Positions 28,906 through 64,000 of a stretch of 64,000 bases of DNA are shown one piece after another; within the stretch, counting starts at the first letter, position 1; each line of letters starts with the position of its first letter. The notes under the pieces were generated by a model. The model had not been told where the DNA came from and did no database searches. It worked only from the letters and a program-made list of their open reading frames with translations. Source of the DNA: an uncultured Candidatus Saccharibacteria bacterium (GTDB lineage Bacteria; Patescibacteriota; Minisyncoccia; Phycocordibacterales; JAKAEA01); NCBI GenBank assembly GCA_964467325.1, contig CAYXSG010000001.1, positions 8,953-72,952 of the forward strand, given 5' to 3'. Both the position numbers and the translations under genes were made by a program.

Positions 28906-28992
28906 GGAGGGTTCGCATAGTGGTCTAGTGCACACGCTTGGAAAGCGTGCGTGGGGCAACCCACCAAGAGTTCGAATCTCTTACCCTCCGCC
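28906..28992 (+). tRNA. tRNA-Ser (anticodon GGA), long variable arm
   Basis: Acceptor GGAGGGT/ACCCTCC; D-arm GCATAGTGGTCTAGTGC; anticodon loop TTGGAAA; T-arm GGTTCGAATCC-like; about 87 nt. Confidence 0.75.
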
Positions 28993-48486: not shown

Positions 48487-48561
48487 GCCGCCTTAGCTCA
48501 GTTGGTAGAGCAATAGTTTTGTAAACTATAGGTCCCCGGTTCAAGCCCGGGAGGCGGCTCC
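48487..48561 (+). tRNA. tRNA-Thr (anticodon UGU)
   Basis: Acceptor GCCGCCT/AGGCGGC; D-arm TAGCTCAGTTGGTAGAGCA; anticodon loop TTTGTAA; T-arm CCCGGTTCAAGCCCGGG. Confidence 0.8.
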
Positions 48562-57684: not shown

Positions 57685-58032
57685 ATGGAAAGAGAATATA
57701 AAGGCACAATAGTAGAGGAAAGTTTAGAAGACAATAGAATACTTAATGGTGTTGAAATTGTTGGATTCAGAATATCAAAAAACGAAAACCCGCAAGATAG
57801 ATGGCATCTTTACACTGTAAAAGTATCAAAAGAAGATATTAAGAAAATATCCAAATATATAAAATTGGGTAAGTGGTATATGCACTTTTGGAAAGATAAA
57901 GATGTTTTCGCCGTTTTTAAGAATAAAGTTTTTGGGTTCAAATATGATAACAAATCTACTTGGAAGGATGCGGTTGAATATGGATTATCACTTGGTATCC
58001 CTAAAGAGCAACTTGATTTTGTAATTGAGTAG
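57685..58032 (+). CDS. AT-rich hypothetical protein immediately 3' of gyrB
   Basis: 5-nt gap after gyrB; about 30% GC; no recognisable domain. Confidence 0.4.
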   Translation: MEREYKGTIVEESLEDNRILNGVEIVGFRISKNENPQDRWHLYTVKVSKEDIKKISKYIKLGKWYMHFWKDKDVFAVFKNKVFGFKYDNKSTWKDAVEYGLSLGIPKEQLDFVIE

Positions 58033-58076
58033 GTATAAGATATAACCACGTTCGCCACGACGGTGGCACCGGAGAT

Positions 58077-58260
58077 CCCCCCCAGTTTTCTGGGGGGAAT
58101 CGTTTTATAAAAAATCCGAAATCACCCCCAACTCAGAACCCCTGCGGCTCGCAGACTCGCCACTCCCCTTTATCTAAAGGGGAGATACCGACTTGCTAAC
58201 AAACTCTTATGCAAGTTCTTCTCTCCTCTTTAGACAAAGAGGAGTGGCCTTCTTAGGCCG
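58077..58260. other. hairpin-dense noncoding region (candidate structured ncRNA / operator array)
   Basis: Perfect hairpins CCCCCCAG-tttt-CTGGGGGG (58077-58097), CTCCCCTTTA-tc-TAAAGGGGAG (58163-58184), CTCCTCTTTA-gac-AAAGAGGAG (58223-58244), GGCCT-tctt-AGGCC (58246-58259). Confidence 0.3.
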
Positions 58261-58341
58261 AGGTGTTCTGAATTCTAGATAAAATCTTTCTAAAGCCTTG
58301 TAAACAGTCTGGCTGGTTTGGGCGTGGTAGACTGGGTGAAT

Positions 58342-59991
58342 ATGACTCAAAAGCAAGCGCTGGAGATTTTGAAGATGGGGAAAAATGTGTTTGTGACCGG
58401 CGCGGCGGGCAGCGGCAAGACACATCTGATCAATCAGTACATAAAATATTTGCGGGAGTTTGACGTGGACATCGGCGTGACGGCGTCCACAGGAATTGCG
58501 GCGACGCACATGGGCGGCGTGACGATTCATTCGTGGAGCGGCATGGGCGTGAAGGCCGATTTGTCGGCGTACGACTTGGAAGCGTTGGAAGAAAAATCTT
58601 ATTTATGGAAAAGGTTTGAGCGCGTGAAGGTTTTGATTATTGATGAAGTTTCCATGCTTCATCATTTCCGGTTGGATTTGGTGGACAAAATTTTGCGGAC
58701 GATGAAACGCAATGACGAGCCGTTTGGCGGGATTCAAGTCGTGCTTTGCGGCGACTTTTTCCAACTGCCGCCGGTCGCGCGCGCTGACGAGCCGGAAGCT
58801 AAGTTTGTGTACCGAGCAAAAGCGTGGCGCGAAGCCGGTTTTACAATTTGCTATTTGACGGAGCAGTTTCGCCAGAAAGACGATGCATGCCTTTCCATTT
58901 TAAACGAAATCCGGAGCGGCGAAGTGTCGGACGAAGCGCGTGAGAGTTTGAAAGAAAGATTTAATAAAAAAACTTTGAAGAATGTGGAGCCGACGCGGCT
59001 TTTTACGCACAACGTGGATGTGGATTCGGTGAACTCAAACGAGCTTGGTAAAGTGGAAGCTGAAGAAGCGAGCTACCAAATGGAATCGCGCGGGCGAGAA
59101 ATTTTGGTGGAAGCGCTGAAAAAATCCTGTCTCGCGCCGGAAACTTTGCGTTTGAAAAAAGGTGCTCGTGTGATGTGCGTGAAAAATCATCCGGAGGGCA
59201 TGTATGTGAACGGCACGCTCGGCATTGTCGTTTCCTGTGGCTTCGGCCGAGAATTGATTATTCAAAACGCCGCCGGCCGAAACATCACGATTGAAAAAGC
59301 GTCATGGAAAATTGAGGAAGATGGGAAAGTCAAAGCCGAAATTATTCAATACCCATTACGCTTGGCTTGGGCGATTACGGTGCATAAAAGTCAGGGTATG
59401 AGTTTGGACGCCGTCGAAGTGGATTTGTCCAAGTCATTTGAACCTGGGATGGGTTACGTGGCGCTTTCGCGCGTGCGGACTTTGGACGGTCTCACAATTC
59501 TTGGTATAAACGAAATGGCGCTTGCGGTGCATCCGGAAGTTTTGGAATTTGACGGCGATTTGCGCGCCGCTTCAAAAAAAGCGGAAGGCAATTTGGCTGC
59601 GCTTGAGACAAGAGAGATTGCCGAACAGCAGAAAAAATTCTTGGCGCGCATTCGGCCGCTCGTCAAAGAAAAGAAAATTTCCACTTATGAAAAAACCGCC
59701 ATACTCATTCGCGAACGCAAATCGCTTTCGCAAATGGCTAAAGTGCGGGAAGTGAACACTGAGACGATTCTAAGTCACATTGAAAAAATGCTGGAAGAAG
59801 GCATTTCTTTGGATATTGCCTACTTGCGTCACGATATTTCACCAGCGCATTTTAAAAAAATAGAAGAAGTAATGAAAGACATTCACAAAAAAACCGGCGA
59901 AGTTAAACTTTCGCCGGTGAAATACAAACTCGGCCCAAGCATTTCTTTTGCGGAAATCCGGTTGGTGAGATTGCTTTTAAATTTGAGCTAG
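58342..59991 (+). CDS. Pif1/RecD-like SF1 ATP-dependent DNA helicase
   Basis: Walker A GAAGSGKT, IIDEVSM, GDFFQLPPV, C-terminal VHKSQG motif. Confidence 0.75.
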   Translation: MTQKQALEILKMGKNVFVTGAAGSGKTHLINQYIKYLREFDVDIGVTASTGIAATHMGGVTIHSWSGMGVKADLSAYDLEALEEKSYLWKRFERVKVLIIDEVSMLHHFRLDLVDKILRTMKRNDEPFGGIQVVLCGDFFQLPPVARADEPEAKFVYRAKAWREAGFTICYLTEQFRQKDDACLSILNEIRSGEVSDEARESLKERFNKKTLKNVEPTRLFTHNVDVDSVNSNELGKVEAEEASYQMESRGREILVEALKKSCLAPETLRLKKGARVMCVKNHPEGMYVNGTLGIVVSCGFGRELIIQNAAGRNITIEKASWKIEEDGKVKAEIIQYPLRLAWAITVHKSQGMSLDAVEVDLSKSFEPGMGYVALSRVRTLDGLTILGINEMALAVHPEVLEFDGDLRAASKKAEGNLAALETREIAEQQKKFLARIRPLVKEKKISTYEKTAILIRERKSLSQMAKVREVNTETILSHIEKMLEEGISLDIAYLRHDISPAHFKKIEEVMKDIHKKTGEVKLSPVKYKLGPSISFAEIRLVRLLLNLS

Positions 59992-60710
59992 AAAGAAGTT
60001 GCGTTCAGGATGGGGAAGTAGACGTTTGCGCTGTTGTTGGCCTTTGAATTTTCGGAAATCGTGTTTGAGGGATTCGCGGTGATGGTGCCCACGTGATTTT
60101 GAGTGTTTGTTGGGTTGCGAAAACCGAGGGTGAATTCAATCCTGTCGCCCGGTCGGAGATTTTGCTGAAGCGGAGAATTGTAGAAAGAATCCGTAACGGA
60201 AGGCAAGTTCGCGGAAAATCCCCAAGCGCCTGTGTCGTTCGTGCCGACGTTTCCAATTTGGAATTTCACGGCTGCTTGCTGGTTGGAATAAATGGTATCT
60301 GAAGGAATGAAAATATTATTTTCGTTGAGAAAACCGGTGGCGATGATGCGCACTTCAAGATCAGGCAAGCCATAAGGATTTGAAACGACCGGCGCTATCG
60401 GTTTTGGTTTTGACACAACTGGTGCTGGAGCTGGCTCCACAACCGGCTCTGGATTTGACGCAATAGTTTCTGTGCTAGTTGGCGCTTGAATGAAAATGTC
60501 GGTGCTGGAGCTGGTTGGCGTAGTTTCGATAAGATTGGTTAATTCTCGAGGAATGAAAACCGATGAGATGGTACTCGAAAGCAGGGAAAGCGTTTGCGGC
60601 ACCACTTTGACTGGCAAAATGATGCAAATTATGAGCAGGACGACAAGCCCAATGAGCGTCAGCACTTTCGCCCAAGTTGGCACATCTTGCGGTTCGTTCG
60701 GTTTTTCCAT
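59988..60710 (-). CDS. membrane-anchored S/T/P-rich surface protein (hypothetical)
   Basis: Start MEKPNEPQD; TM anchor then P/T-rich linker and beta-rich domain. Confidence 0.45.
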   Translation of the reverse strand: MEKPNEPQDVPTWAKVLTLIGLVVLLIICIILPVKVVPQTLSLLSSTISSVFIPRELTNLIETTPTSSSTDIFIQAPTSTETIASNPEPVVEPAPAPVVSKPKPIAPVVSNPYGLPDLEVRIIATGFLNENNIFIPSDTIYSNQQAAVKFQIGNVGTNDTGAWGFSANLPSVTDSFYNSPLQQNLRPGDRIEFTLGFRNPTNTQNHVGTITANPSNTISENSKANNSANVYFPILNATSF

Positions 60711-60785
60711 TTGCACAATGATACAACATCCAATTATTAAAGTCAATTTGACTTATTATCCATTAAGTGATATAAGTGTTGCTTC

Positions 60786-61427
60786 ATGGCATTTTTAGAC
60801 ATCGTTTGGAAATACAAATATTTGCTGGCTTTTTACACGGTGGTGATTTCCTTTGGTTCTTTTACCGCACTTTACCTTGTTGGCTTGGTACCGAGCGAGC
60901 TAAAAATGGCAGACGCACCGGCCTACACCATGCTGGCCGCGCCGGCCGAGGTTTTGCCAGTAAATAATAAAGCATCAAAAACTGTAATTGGTCAATTGCC
61001 AAAACGCGTGATAATTTCTAAAATCGGCGTAGATTCTTATGTCAGTAATCCAACTTCGACTGACACGTCTATTTTGAACGAAGCTCTTTTATCGGGCGCA
61101 GTTCGCTATCCCGGCTCCGGCACGCTTGGCCACGGCAATATGTTTCTCTTCGGCCACAGCACCGGCATTCGCATCGTCAACAATCAAGCATACAAGGCGT
61201 TCAATCATCTCAATCAGATGGCGCTTGGCGACACGATTAGCGTGCAATCGTCAGACACGGAATACACCTATTCGGTCACTTCCGTGGCTTTGATTGATAG
61301 CGATGAAAAGCTAGTGGATTTTTCAAAAAATAAAGACATGCTGACGCTTTCTACCTGTGATGTCTTCGGCGAAAAGCAGGAGCGGTATGTCGTTGAAGCC
61401 AAGTTTATAAGTTCTAGAAAACTATAA
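60786..61427 (+). CDS. srt: sortase family transpeptidase
   Basis: N-terminal TM; catalytic His (LFGHSTG), TLSTC (TLxTC) Cys motif, conserved Arg (RYVVEAKF). Confidence 0.75.
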   Translation: MAFLDIVWKYKYLLAFYTVVISFGSFTALYLVGLVPSELKMADAPAYTMLAAPAEVLPVNNKASKTVIGQLPKRVIISKIGVDSYVSNPTSTDTSILNEALLSGAVRYPGSGTLGHGNMFLFGHSTGIRIVNNQAYKAFNHLNQMALGDTISVQSSDTEYTYSVTSVALIDSDEKLVDFSKNKDMLTLSTCDVFGEKQERYVVEAKFISSRKL

Positions 61428-61431
61428 AACC

Positions 61432-64000
61432 ATGACTAAAGTAAAAATATTTTTCATTTTCTTGACGATGATCGTGATTTCCAGCGCTTGGTTTGGCGCT
61501 TCTTTTGTGAACGCTTCGGGCAATGGCACGCTCACAGTTTGTCTCATGTTCACTGATCACGACAACGACATCGTTCACAGTTTCAATAATTCCAATGTGC
61601 CGAATACCAGTTTTAATGTGCCGATTACGGTTCATAACTCCGACGGCACGGTTAAAGTCATTAAAAATGTTTCGGTCAGCACGGCAGATTTTACGCCGAA
61701 CACACGGATTGTTGGCTTGTCGAACGATGCGCAATGCACCACTTACACTTTGCCGATTAGCGATTATTATTACCGCCGCGAAACAATTTCTGGCACGGGT
61801 GCGGACAAATGGGCGCTCGCTACTTACAACGACGAATACAACAGCCGAGTAAAAACCCTAAATGATTTCTACGATTTGGGTACGACCGATGTTGCTGACC
61901 ACACCATTGTGCTTCATGACGATCGGCCGGACCGCCGGCTGGTGGTGCTCAACCGGTTTAACGATTCTTTTGAAATCATTCCGCCACTTACGGCATCTTG
62001 CAGCGCATTGCCCGCCACAGTTTTTCCAAGCAATCCAGTTACTTGGAAAGCTAATGCTGCCGGCGGTGTTGGTGTGTATACATATTCTTGGATTGGCGCT
62101 TTTAGTTCCACTGCTTCCACAACGGTGACTTCTTTTAGCACAACAGGAGTCAAAAATGCCACGGTTAAAGTTACTTCCGGCACGATGACGGCAACGGCCA
62201 ATTGTAATGTTTCCGTGGTCGCTAGACCGGTTTCAACTGGTACTTTGGTTCTAGACAAAACTGTCTTCAATTCTCACGGCGGTACCAAACAACCATCAGA
62301 CTTTTCTTTCTTCATCGGCAACATCCAAGTACCCCTCGGCCAAGCCAACACTTTAACTCCAGGCACTTACACGGTTCATGAAAATAATTTGCCGGGCTAT
62401 GTTGCTGACGGTTGGACAGGTGATTGCACGGCTGATGGTCACGTGACCATTGCGGCTGGCGATGCAAAACACTGCTCGATTATTAACCGAGACGTGGCGC
62501 CGACCGTGACCACGGGCACGGTGACGCTTACGAAATTTGTAATTAATGACAATGGCGGTACCAAACAGCCTTCCGATTTCAGACTTTATGTTGGCACCAC
62601 TTCGGTAACGAGTGGCGTTTCCACAACGTTCTCTGCGGGCACTTACTCGGTTCACGAAGACAATCTATCCGGCTACACGGCTGGCACTTGGATGGGCGAT
62701 TGTACTACAGACGGTCATGTCACAATTGTTGCGGGCCAAAATAAAAATTGTTCAATAACTAACAACGACATTCGTCAAAATCCTCCGCCTCCGCCACCAC
62801 TATCCACCGGCACTCTCACTCTAGACAAAACTGTCTTCAATTCTCACGGCGGTACCAAACAACCATCAGACTTTTCTTTCTTCATCGGCAACATCCAAGT
62901 ACCCCTCGGCCAAGCCAACACTTTAACTCCAGGCACTTACACGGTTCATGAAAATAATTTGCCGGGCTATGTTGCTGACGGTTGGACAGGCGACTGTGCG
63001 GCTGATGGTCACGTGACCATTGCGGCTGGCGATGCGAAACATTGTTCGATTATTAACCGAGATGTGGAGCAAATTCTGCCACCGCCACCAACACCGCCAT
63101 TTTCCATTTCCTGCGCGGTGTTGAACAACCCAACATCGGTTGACCAAAATACTGTTGTGGCTTGGCAGGTTACGTTTGCTTTCCCAACTAGCAATTCCGA
63201 GGCGTATGTCTACAATGCCACGTATGATTGGTCTGGCACGGACGGTCTGACTGGTACAAATCAAACCGTTACCAAATTATATTCCACCCCAGGCACAAAA
63301 AATGCCAGTGTTATAGTTACGTCGCACAATTCTTCCGGCACGGGATACTACACCACTAGCGCCAGCTGTTCCATTCCGGTTAATCCTCCGCCACCACTGC
63401 CGCTTGGCTGCATCGCCATTCATAAAAGTGCTCTTGATTCCAATGGCGTTGCAATTACGCCAGTGCCAACTTTCGGTTTCAAAGTGGACAATGGCGCGGA
63501 ACTTTTCAACGATAACTCTGGCTTGGCCACCGTCTCTGGCTTAAGTGTCGGCACTCACACTGTGACTGAAACTACGAAAGACGGTTGGACCAATACCAAC
63601 ACTACGCCAACCAACGGCTCGGTCTCGGTAGTTGCAGGCAATCAGTGCGCAGATGTTACTTTTGAAAATAAACAAAATGCGCCGGCTGTGGTTCCGGATA
63701 TAATTGCTTCGTGTTCAGCCAATCCTTCCACTGCCAACATCGGCGACACAGTTACGTATTCGGCGAGTGCTTCCGGTGGCAATGGTTCATTCACCTACGC
63801 TTGGAGCGGCGATGAAAATTTGTCCGGTTCAAATAGTTCGGCCAGCGCCTCCTACACAACTGCCGGCACGAAAAGTGCTACCGTGATTGTGTCTTCAGGC
63901 GGCAAAACGGCCACGGCCAATTGTTCTGCTTCAATTGTTGAAGCCACGCCAACCTTAAATGGTTCATGTGCAGCCAATCCATCGGCAGTTAACACGGGCG
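61432..64000 (+). CDS. very large repetitive secreted surface protein (PKD-like and prealbumin/Cna-B-like repeats), 5' partial, runs off the window
   Basis: Uninterrupted frame from ATG 61432 to the window end (over 855 codons); signal peptide; repeated domains with poly-Pro linkers; immediately downstream of the sortase. Confidence 0.7.
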   Translation, partial: MTKVKIFFIFLTMIVISSAWFGASFVNASGNGTLTVCLMFTDHDNDIVHSFNNSNVPNTSFNVPITVHNSDGTVKVIKNVSVSTADFTPNTRIVGLSNDAQCTTYTLPISDYYYRRETISGTGADKWALATYNDEYNSRVKTLNDFYDLGTTDVADHTIVLHDDRPDRRLVVLNRFNDSFEIIPPLTASCSALPATVFPSNPVTWKANAAGGVGVYTYSWIGAFSSTASTTVTSFSTTGVKNATVKVTSGTMTATANCNVSVVARPVSTGTLVLDKTVFNSHGGTKQPSDFSFFIGNIQVPLGQANTLTPGTYTVHENNLPGYVADGWTGDCTADGHVTIAAGDAKHCSIINRDVAPTVTTGTVTLTKFVINDNGGTKQPSDFRLYVGTTSVTSGVSTTFSAGTYSVHEDNLSGYTAGTWMGDCTTDGHVTIVAGQNKNCSITNNDIRQNPPPPPPLSTGTLTLDKTVFNSHGGTKQPSDFSFFIGNIQVPLGQANTLTPGTYTVHENNLPGYVADGWTGDCAADGHVTIAAGDAKHCSIINRDVEQILPPPPTPPFSISCAVLNNPTSVDQNTVVAWQVTFAFPTSNSEAYVYNATYDWSGTDGLTGTNQTVTKLYSTPGTKNASVIVTSHNSSGTGYYTTSASCSIPVNPPPPLPLGCIAIHKSALDSNGVAITPVPTFGFKVDNGAELFNDNSGLATVSGLSVGTHTVTETTKDGWTNTNTTPTNGSVSVVAGNQCADVTFENKQNAPAVVPDIIASCSANPSTANIGDTVTYSASASGGNGSFTYAWSGDENLSGSNSSASASYTTAGTKSATVIVSSGGKTATANCSASIVEATPTLNGSCAANPSAVNTG
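62251..62497 (+). repeat. intragenic direct repeat, copy 1 (170 bp perfect, about 247 bp at roughly 95%)
   Basis: 62251-62420 identical to 62821-62990. Confidence 0.8.
62821..63067 (+). repeat. intragenic direct repeat, copy 2
   Basis: 570-bp period, encodes a duplicated Cna-B-like domain. Confidence 0.8.

Follow-up and report, generated by a model that had tools for sequence, protein, structure and literature searches.

A sortase gene and an adjoining gene for a modular, presumed sortase-anchored surface protein in a Patescibacteria genome

In a CPR/Patescibacteria (Paceibacteria-type) genome, a sortase gene is followed by a long open reading frame with internal repeats, close to the end of the window (the whole 64-kb stretch of DNA that was analysed). 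The locus raises the question whether the two genes are an enzyme and its substrate, what kind of surface protein is encoded, and what its nearly identical repeats represent. The window content alone amounts to a routine sortase and a stalk-like surface protein in an ordinary arrangement. Comparison with related loci uncovers a conserved locus of one enzyme and one substrate. The two genes likely form a unit of a membrane-anchored sortase and a dedicated modular surface-protein substrate, with a PYTG-type sorting signal and conversion between the repeats R1 and R3. The unit is probably a sortase-substrate pair of an already known sort whose sorting signal is non-classical. Surface proteins of CPR/Patescibacteria are likely tools of an episymbiotic life and are, to our knowledge, almost uncharacterised.

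The sortase and the adjoining gene

The first gene (Table 1) matches the Pfam family Sortase (PF04203) with an E-value of 1.7e-19 and 70.3 bits (cut-off 26.6). The original prediction of a sortase with a TLxTC motif was correct: TLSTC is found at aa 187-191, and the catalytic His and Arg lie in the motifs GHS (H124) and ERYVV (Arg200). The nearest solved relative is SrtA of B. anthracis (2kw8, E 7e-10), with the His, Cys and Arg motifs each aligned. Only the generic sortase model TIGR01076 was passed among the NCBIfam sortase models (43.7 bits vs 39.35), and the protein remained below every class cut-off (A-F and GN models). Class D was the top-scoring class model (45.9 bits vs 165), and the other scores were 39.4 vs 160 (class C), 37.6 vs 160 (class E), 16.2 vs 166 (class F) and 31.3 vs 158 (GN). 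Judged by these profiles, the enzyme is a member of an unclassified clade outside classes A-F. Because no curated class fits, its specificity is not readable from class membership.

The stop codon of the sortase gene (TAA, 61425-61427) and the next ATG (61432) are separated by a gap of 4 nt, and the two genes are probably co-transcribed because of this short distance. The second frame is open, as claimed, for 856 codons without a stop up to the window end. No feature of the locus was matched in Rfam and tRNA scans.

Table 1. Features of the sortase locus, in window coordinates
Feature	Position	Strand	Remarks
CARDB-domain protein, membrane-anchored, divergently transcribed, 252 aa	59988..60746	-	Pfam CARDB E 3.2e-05, above cut-off
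Sortase, 213 aa	60786..61427	+	N-terminal membrane anchor; catalytic His124, Cys191 (TLSTC), Arg200
Modular surface protein, 5' part, presumed sortase substrate	61432..64000	+	856 codons; gene leaves window
Signal peptide, aa 1-28	61432..61515	+	K-rich start, hydrophobic core, VNA/S; read from translation by eye
N-terminal domain, aa 29-186	61516..61989	+	No Pfam match; candidate distal or ligand-binding module
PKD-like repeat 1, aa 188-262	61993..62217	+	Cys190...Cys258
SpaA_2 (CnaB-type) domain R1, aa 266-355	62227..62496	+	Copy 1 of near-identical pair
Perfect repeat core, 171 nt, copy 1	62250..62420	+	Includes variant sites 62331, 62337
SpaA_2 domain R2, aa 359-448	62506..62775	+	Diverged middle copy, 55% aa identity to R1
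SpaA_2 domain R3, aa 456-546	62797..63069	+	Copy 2 of near-identical pair
Perfect repeat core, 171 nt, copy 2	62820..62990	+	Sequence self-comparison
PKD-like repeat 2, aa 559-648	63106..63375	+	Pfam PKD_4 best stretch aa 571-636
SpaA prealbumin-like domain, aa 659-748 (GCIAIHK...)	63406..63675	+	Pfam SpaA 7.3e-06
PKD-like repeat 3, aa 759-835 (GGNGSFTYAWSGDENLSG)	63706..63936	+	Translation, homologue comparison
PKD-like repeat 4, start only	63961..64000	+	Cut by window end; direct repeat D5, translation

The second protein has a Sec signal peptide (MTKVKIFFIFLTMIVISSAWFGASFVNA/SG, judged by eye from the translation). The claim of at least three Cna-B/prealbumin-like repeats is borne out by three SpaA_2 matches (PF19403, E 3.8e-19) and one SpaA match, and the SpaA domain is collinear with the same domain in the partner protein of locus L008 and in two further homologues (P0014, P0246). 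The PKD-like repeats that had also been reported number four. PKD_4 (PF18911) scores 24.0 bits, under the gathering cut-off of 27 bits, and the repeats are therefore named PKD-like only; repeats of homologous type in the protein P0009 pass the PKD cut-off at 42 bits. The fourth repeat was recognised by the direct repeat D5 (63701-63745 vs 63956-64000). Poly-proline linkers, claimed between the repeats, occur at aa 451-456, 550-553 and 652-655 and are absent from the R1-R2 linker. The N-terminal domain recurs inside P0379, a member of the tail family described below (30% identity, E 2e-11). The term 'giant' is not supported by the length of the partners in six syntenic loci (835-1090 aa) or of the closest complete relative (1492 aa). 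The product would be a Sec-secreted stalk of Ig-like modules: an N-domain, a PKD-like repeat, three SpaA_2 domains, a PKD-like repeat, a SpaA domain and at least two more PKD-like repeats.

The SpaA_2 domains combine a profile match above cut-off with a CnaB-type fold (AF2 model of R1, pLDDT 97), and their top structural matches are pilins. In the R1 model, strand 1, strand 5 and the last strand carry K276, E317 and N352, and Glu317 sits in an E-box-like YTVxExxLPGY motif. Across 485 SpaA_2 instances the three residues are 88-95% conserved, and alignment A2 shows no variation at them. From this conservation and the modelled positions, it is probable that each SpaA_2 domain is stabilised by an internal isopeptide bond formed by Lys276, Glu317 and Asn352.

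The duplication of R1 and R3

The near-identical intragenic duplication is real. The perfect run (62250-62420 = 62820-62990, offset 570) measures 171 nt, one base more than the 170 bp first reported, and the surrounding 247 nt, put at about 95% identity, are 96.8% identical; the values are 95.3% over 253 nt and 93% over 275 nt. Over the whole copy 16 codons differ, 12 of them synonymously. The differences between the copies are unevenly spread, with none in the 171-nt core and eight in the 77 nt 3' of it (Fisher p = 7e-5). The order of the repeats is confirmed by an independent assembly, the ENA contig L002, which reproduces R1 and R2 as well as the Pro-rich linker and R3 over its first 92 nt. 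An origin of R3 as an 'assembly loop' was ruled out by the 16 differing codons together with the junction in L002. The claimed recent duplication or recombination thus holds as a real duplication bearing the signature of recent homogenisation. The internal repeats of orthologues are only 62-81% identical. R1 and R3 would derive from an older duplication of a single domain, the central 171 nt of which would have been homogenised recently by non-allelic gene conversion.

Two bases of the core require separate consideration. The independent contigs L001 and L002 read G/G at 62331/62337, and the window carries the copy-2 bases A/C there. Compared over 2599-3059 nt, the window differs from these contigs only at these two sites and at one further site in L001. 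R2 was ruled out as the donor of the G/G variant by sequence inspection. Because the independent assemblies read G/G and the window A/C, the perfect run results either from gene conversion over a short tract or from the collapse of a bubble in the assembly, and the two window-specific bases may equally stem from a bubble collapse in the window assembly. In the case in which assembly or polishing produced the perfect identity, the true copy 1 would read G/G, the bubble having collapsed to the copy-2 allele, and the duplication would be real with a core of 169/171. This is a serious possibility that falls somewhat short of being favoured. It is consistent with the two independent k141 assemblies, which are otherwise identical and have G/G in copy 1, and with A/C in copy 2 of L002. 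The distance from the variant sites to the closest copy-specific bases is 81 and 83 nt, too far for k-mers or reads shorter than about 90 nt to place them, and all three short-read contigs end within the partner gene. On the other side, the samples differ, and a single short conversion tract that gave rise to a real strain difference would be just as parsimonious; the eight fixed differences kept in the rest of the copy indicate that the assembler separated the copies elsewhere. Even at 169/171 identity the core is significantly more similar than the 3' flank (p = 0.0017), so homogenisation took place under either reading. The repeat is a small, clean example of intragenic homogenisation and, at the same time, a caution that collapsed variants may lie behind 'perfect' repeats in metagenome assemblies.

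Synteny, sorting signal and cytoplasmic tail

In the window, the sortase locus is preceded by pheS-pheT-gyrB. The order gyrB, (CARDB), sortase, partner, thrS is found in six loci (L005/L006, L007, L008, L009, L010), with the CARDB gene at the equivalent position in L006, L007, L008 and L010. The six sortases are 48-64% identical. The window protein is collinear with the partner of L008. Small genes located 3' of the partner in L005 and L008 are without a sorting motif.

The frame leaves the window at codon 856, and the evidence for a sorting motif comes from the orthologous partners. All six carry V[YF]LSQ[VL]PYTG, a transmembrane helix and K/R, followed by a tail of 139-367 aa; the L010 partner has the canonical LPYTG. 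A textbook sorting signal is located at the extreme C-terminus and ends in a short charged tail. In the orthologues the signal is not at the extreme C-terminus and the long tail takes the place of the short one. Classical layout was observed in three of 18 PYTG-bearing homologues (P0043, P0065, P0066), which end 32-36 aa after the motif; for the tail-profile matches retained by the motif filter, the stretch from the motif to the protein end has a median length of 330 aa.

The 3' end of the gene was searched for in several ways. An exact look-up of the sortase returned three ENA contigs, all broken inside the partner gene; a scan of genome contigs yielded only a 43%-identical Paceibacteria locus, and in JGI metagenomes a scan for exact 40-mers returned 0 matches. 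A cluster look-up placed an identical sortase on an NCBI contig of 73,722 nt. Among 5.8 billion proteins searched there was no match above 60% identity and no near-identical full-length protein. No continuation of the window protein was found among the tail-family matches, the best of which is 52% identical. P0246, 51% identical to the window protein over 208 aa, has the order SpaA, three PKD, Gly-rich spacer, VFLSQVPYTG and tail. Extrapolated from the six orthologous loci and this one relative, the missing C-terminus would begin with one or two further PKD-like repeats and a Gly-rich spacer, continue with LSQ[VL]PYTG, a membrane helix and K/R residues, and close with a cytoplasmic tail of approximately 140-400 aa; the full-length protein is predicted to have about 1300-1450 aa. 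In place of a classical LPXTG at the C-terminus, the window protein probably has LSQ[VL]PYTG with a transmembrane helix and a long cytoplasmic tail. The sortase would cleave PYTG between T and G and join the ectodomain to the cell wall; helix and tail would stay in the membrane.

The original suggestion of a sortase substrate gains indirect support from the LPXTG-like [VL]PYTG adjoining a membrane helix in six of six syntenic partners. The protein might instead be an intact bitopic membrane protein in which PYTG is a structural juxtamembrane motif, with the sortase serving other substrates. Two observations speak for this alternative: no characterised sorting signal has a long tail of this kind behind the helix, and the NCBIfam models, LPXTG-anchor ones included, do not match P0014 or P0039. 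It is nevertheless improbable, given the adjacency of sortase and partner in 6/6 loci, the fit of the motif to [LVI]PxTG (exactly LPYTG in L010), the three relatives with the classical short-tail layout, and the lack of any other candidate substrate ([LIV]PxTG or PYTG followed by a helix) within the 64-kb window. The string LPYTG also gave a text match in a paper on the beta-antigen of S. agalactiae (PMC4457541). Otherwise, the literature search on CPR sortase substrates and on VPYTG, IPYTG and LPYTG returned only passing mentions of sortases. The probable recognition motif LSQ[VIL]PYTG is matched by neither Pfam nor NCBIfam models in the partners scanned.

For a dedicated sortase substrate, a long and conserved cytoplasmic tail after the signal is at odds with the textbook design and provides a directly testable hypothesis. 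The tail after PYTG and helix defines a family of 649 cluster representatives without a Pfam or NCBIfam model; there were no significant family matches, only concordant faint ones to lid and RFC-C domains (E ~0.1). The tail profile reached an E-value of 1.4 to the RFC4 lid among PDB sequences, and the predicted tail fold resembles an AAA+ lid plus clamp-loader collar. It is tentatively suggested that the window protein is a member of a large Paceibacteria family, as yet unannotated, with the architecture ectodomain, LSQ[VIL]PYTG, helix and AAA+-lid/collar-like tail. In this family, cleavage would have two simultaneous outcomes: the ectodomain would be anchored in the wall, and a membrane-tethered cytoplasmic module would be left behind or released. 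If true, the sorting signal would have a second, intracellular function, for example positioning of the precursor or reporting surface-protein processing to the cytoplasm.

Possible role and comparison with known systems

Attachment to a host by the surface protein is plausible. A phase- or length-variable adhesin had also been suggested. In such a protein, recombination between R1 and R3 would switch the stalk between three domains and one within a population. Two in-frame direct repeats of about 250 nt with 93-100% identity, 570 nt apart, are a workable substrate for RecA-dependent deletion or duplication, and in Periscope Proteins length variation is driven by high-identity domain repeats (PMC8201768). 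Variation of this type is nevertheless quite unlikely here. Only two high-identity copies exist, parted by the 55%-identical R2, and do not form a tandem array; L002, the one informative independent contig and the sole other assembly reaching copy 2, has the same R1-R2-R3 order as far as it extends. Simple-sequence tracts and inverted repeats are absent, and the orthologues possess diverged repeats only.

A sortase-polymerised pilus subunit in place of a wall-anchored monomer, in line with the 'pilus-like' wording of the original prediction, is very unlikely: the pilins among the structural matches and the VPxTG-type signals of streptococcal pilins would fit it, but a YPKN-type pilin motif (YPK or PK[ND]) is absent from the 856 aa, the single sortase stays below the class C cut-off (39 vs 160 bits), each locus has one substrate gene and a second pilin gene in 0/6 cases, and the protein is far bigger and more modular than known pilins.

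The preferred reading, a membrane-anchored sortase with a dedicated wall-anchored substrate, can be compared with several known systems. The sortase has the fold family, the TLxTC, His and Arg residues and the N-terminal membrane anchor in common with the class A and class D sortases of B. anthracis (PDB 2kw8 and 2ln7). It differs in failing the class D and the other listed class models, and its likely motif starts with Val, Ile or Leu and has Tyr invariantly at X. Streptococcal pilins (Spy0128/T-antigens, GBS52, RrgB) are several times smaller and come with a pilin motif, a pilus operon and a class C sortase. With the Periscope Proteins (SasG, Rib and the SHIRT arrays of Sgo_0707; PMC8201768) the protein shares a surface stalk, very high DNA identity between repeats, a candidate distal N-terminal domain and presumed sortase anchoring, whereas its high-identity copies are two and non-adjacent, no variation in repeat number was seen (one informative contig), and its domains are CnaB-type, not SHIRT, G5-E or Rib. 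Another related kind are the sortase-anchored fibrillar adhesins of Gram-positive bacteria, of MSCRAMM type with CnaB stalks (Cna, SdrD, TIE, the Mobiluncus adhesin). In contrast to these, the organism is a member of the CPR/Paceibacteria, the stalk mixes SpaA_2 domains with PKD-like repeats, the sortase lies outside classes A-F, and the orthologues use LSQ[VL]PYTG with a cytoplasmic tail of 140-400 aa instead of a short charged tail.

Sortase gene and locus

The sortase ORF at 60786-61427 comprises 213 codons, and its product, with a hydrophobic anchor at the N-terminus, matches the Pfam Sortase domain (E 1.7e-19). In an alignment with Bacillus anthracis SrtA (2kw8, E 7e-10), GHS (His124), TLSTC (Cys191) and ERYVV (Arg200) coincide with its catalytic motifs. 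NCBIfam models allocate the enzyme to a generic sortase family and to none of the classes A-F or GN. Its homologues number in the hundreds; the sole names among them are 'sortase' and 'LPXTG-site transpeptidase', and some are labelled Candidatus Parcubacteria. The TAA stop occupies 61425-61427 and the next ATG lies at 61432, from where the frame of the surface protein (the window protein) is open for 856 codons up to the window end. The sortase and open, repeat-rich ORF of the original prediction were thus borne out.

Upstream of the sortase are pheS, pheT, gyrB, a 115-aa ORF, a PIF1-like helicase and a divergent gene for a CARDB membrane protein. Six syntenic loci were retrieved (contigs L005/L006, L007, L008, L009 and L010), with sortases 48-64% identical. 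Gene order is the same in all: gyrB, (CARDB), sortase, a single large secreted protein (the partner) and thrS, with dnaE next in L007-L010 on contigs long enough to include it. The CARDB-domain protein (59988-60746, minus strand), divergently transcribed and N-terminally anchored, is a conserved sortase neighbour with the same position in L006, L007, L008 and L010, and could belong to the locus as its third component. The interval 57685-59991, lying between gyrB and the CARDB gene, holds the 115-aa ORF, whose stretch is low in GC (0.37), and the helicase with its C-terminal HTH_40; this segment may be a local insertion, since nothing is found at that position in L007 and L010. In some syntenic loci the gene after that of the partner encodes a small secreted protein (L005 5316-5927, L008 14178-14900) with a weak FN3/purple-acid-phosphatase-N-like domain, a low-complexity tail rich in Asn and Thr, and no sorting motif. 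Scans of the 64-kb window for RNA genes detected only tRNA-Ser(GGA) at 28906-28992 and tRNA-Thr(TGT) at 48487-48561.

Domain architecture and the near-identical repeat

Pfam identified three SpaA_2 domains (E 3.8e-19) and one SpaA domain in the window protein; a PKD_4 match is near threshold (24 vs 27 bits).

Features of the window protein, with domain borders in aa drawn from the translation
Feature	Position (aa)	Source
Signal peptide	1-28	translation
N-domain	29-186	translation
PKD-like	188-262	translation
SpaA_2 R1	266-355	translation
SpaA_2 R2	359-448	translation
SpaA_2 R3	456-546	translation
PKD-like	559-648	translation
SpaA	659-748	translation
PKD-like	759-835	translation
Fourth PKD-like repeat	from 844, cut by window end	translation
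Poly-Pro linkers	451-456, 550-553, 652-655	

The same modules make up the partner ectodomains: SpaA_2, a 'GCIAIHK' SpaA domain and PKD-like 'GGxGxYxYxWxG' repeats. Residues 357-842 are collinear with the L008 partner. The homologue P0246 (1492 aa), 51% identical over 208 aa, has the order SpaA, three PKD-like repeats, Gly-rich spacer and sorting module, and the otherwise orphan N-domain recurs in another homologue, P0379 (E 2e-11). Partners are 835-1090 aa long; by analogy, the full window protein should have about 1300-1450 aa, so the label 'giant' is unsupported.

Conservation over 485 SpaA_2 instances from 103 proteins is highest at K276 (88%), E317 (93%), Y323 (93%), C348 (95%) and N352 (95%). 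An AlphaFold2 model of R1, built on a 37-sequence alignment, reached pLDDT 97 and places K276 in the first strand, E317 in a central one and N352 in the last. This conservation and placement make a predicted intradomain Lys-Asn isopeptide bond likely. E317 lies within YTVHENNLPGY, which resembles the pilin E-box.

A run of 171 nt without a mismatch, in frame and displaced by 570 nt, is common to R1 (62250-62420) and R3 (62820-62990). The two copies are 96.8% identical over 247 nt and 93% over 275 nt, with identity falling off exactly at the domain borders. Over the whole copy 16 codons differ, 12 of them synonymously. The core contains no differences, against eight in the 77 nt immediately 3' (Fisher p = 7e-5), the mark of an older duplication of one domain with later homogenisation of its centre. 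Internal repeats of orthologous genes are only 62-81% identical, and the high-identity pair is thus specific to the window lineage.

An exact look-up of the sortase returned three independent ENA MEGAHIT (k141) contigs from other samples (L001-L003), identical to the window over 3059, 2599 and 1105 nt except at 62331, 62337 and, in L001 alone, 62217. The duplication is real, since L002 independently carries the R1, R2, Pro-linker, R3 junction. Both L001 and L002 have G at 62331 (window A) and at 62337 (window C), two synonymous sites in copy 1 (R1). At these sites the window carries the copy-2 (R3) bases, and copy 2 of L002 itself reads A/C; two strain differences would fall in the core and also match the paralogous base by chance with a probability of about 5e-4. 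Putting G/G back still leaves the core significantly more similar than the flank (p = 0.0017). The last two core differences were erased in the window sequence possibly by gene conversion over 7 to 171 nt, possibly by collapse of a variant bubble, as 81 and 83 nt separate the two sites from the nearest copy-specific bases. All three contigs end inside the surface-protein gene (L001 at window position 62840, L002 at 62911, L003 at 61890), which is therefore evidently an assembly breakpoint; the window end may be a contig end.

Probable sorting signal and cytoplasmic tail

The C-terminus of the window protein lies outside the window, and searches for it found no continuation; the signal was read from its relatives. 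The six syntenic partners, without exception, and 12 more homologues have V[YF]L[SDNT]Q[VI]PYTG at the end of the ectodomain, the L010 variant, LSQLPYTG, being a canonical LPxTG. Next come some five polar residues, then a helix of roughly 22 residues with K/R residues after it. LPYTG was also matched in the text of a publication about the S. agalactiae beta antigen (PMC4457541), which is not relied on here as precedent. A scan of the 64-kb window found no other candidate substrate. Given these motifs, the absence of another candidate in the window and the 4-nt gene spacing, a dedicated enzyme-substrate pair is the best reading, in which the sortase would cleave the window protein. Two SpaA_2-repeat homologues, P0068 (1044 aa) and P0101 (724 aa), carry LPATG or LPNTG and then a fused C-terminal sortase domain, with enzyme and substrate in one polypeptide chain.

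Three homologues have the textbook layout, ending 32-36 aa after the motif; all others continue 94-393 aa past it. A profile of this cytoplasmic tail (A3), likewise outside the window, matched no significant family in Pfam and NCBIfam. It retrieved 649 representatives of 50%-identity clusters (451 at E <= 1e-10), and among the hits listed the matched stretch reaches the C-terminus or close to it. Those that are named are 'hypothetical protein' of Candidatus Paceibacter or Paceibacteria. A strict filter (motif, helix, K/R) was passed by 106 of 142 new representatives, 103 of these with [VIL]PYTG; nearly all long 'misses' inspected also have the motif. The predicted fold of the tail resembles an AAA+ lid plus a clamp-loader collar (RFC), and in the model its first ~65 residues can be superposed on AAA+ lids at 1.9 A. 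Faint sequence matches (AAA_assoc_2, TIP49 lid, Rep_fac_C, RFC4 lid) point the same way. The model was built on a shallow alignment of 8 sequences, so that the AAA+ lid-like fold is a prediction, not a result.

Comparison with known systems

The original interpretation is supported in part. A motif search of the 856 residues of the window protein found no pilin motif, and the pilus-like reading was rejected. Periscope Proteins are defined by a tandem high-identity array with repeat-number variation (PMC8201768); the window protein falls outside this definition, and its description as a phase- or length-variable adhesin was not upheld. Judged from sequence, it is a putative sortase-anchored fibrillar adhesin of the Gram-positive type, which the system resembles in function and anatomy. 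The feature is ordinary inside the window, and the comparative picture of the locus is a modest new variation on a known system, with one clearly testable unusual property. Compared with a classical sortase system, the sortase lies outside the curated classes, the signal in orthologues is V/I/L-P-Y-T-G with a conserved LSQ prefix and, by analogy with the relatives, the helix is most likely followed by a long structured cytoplasmic tail.
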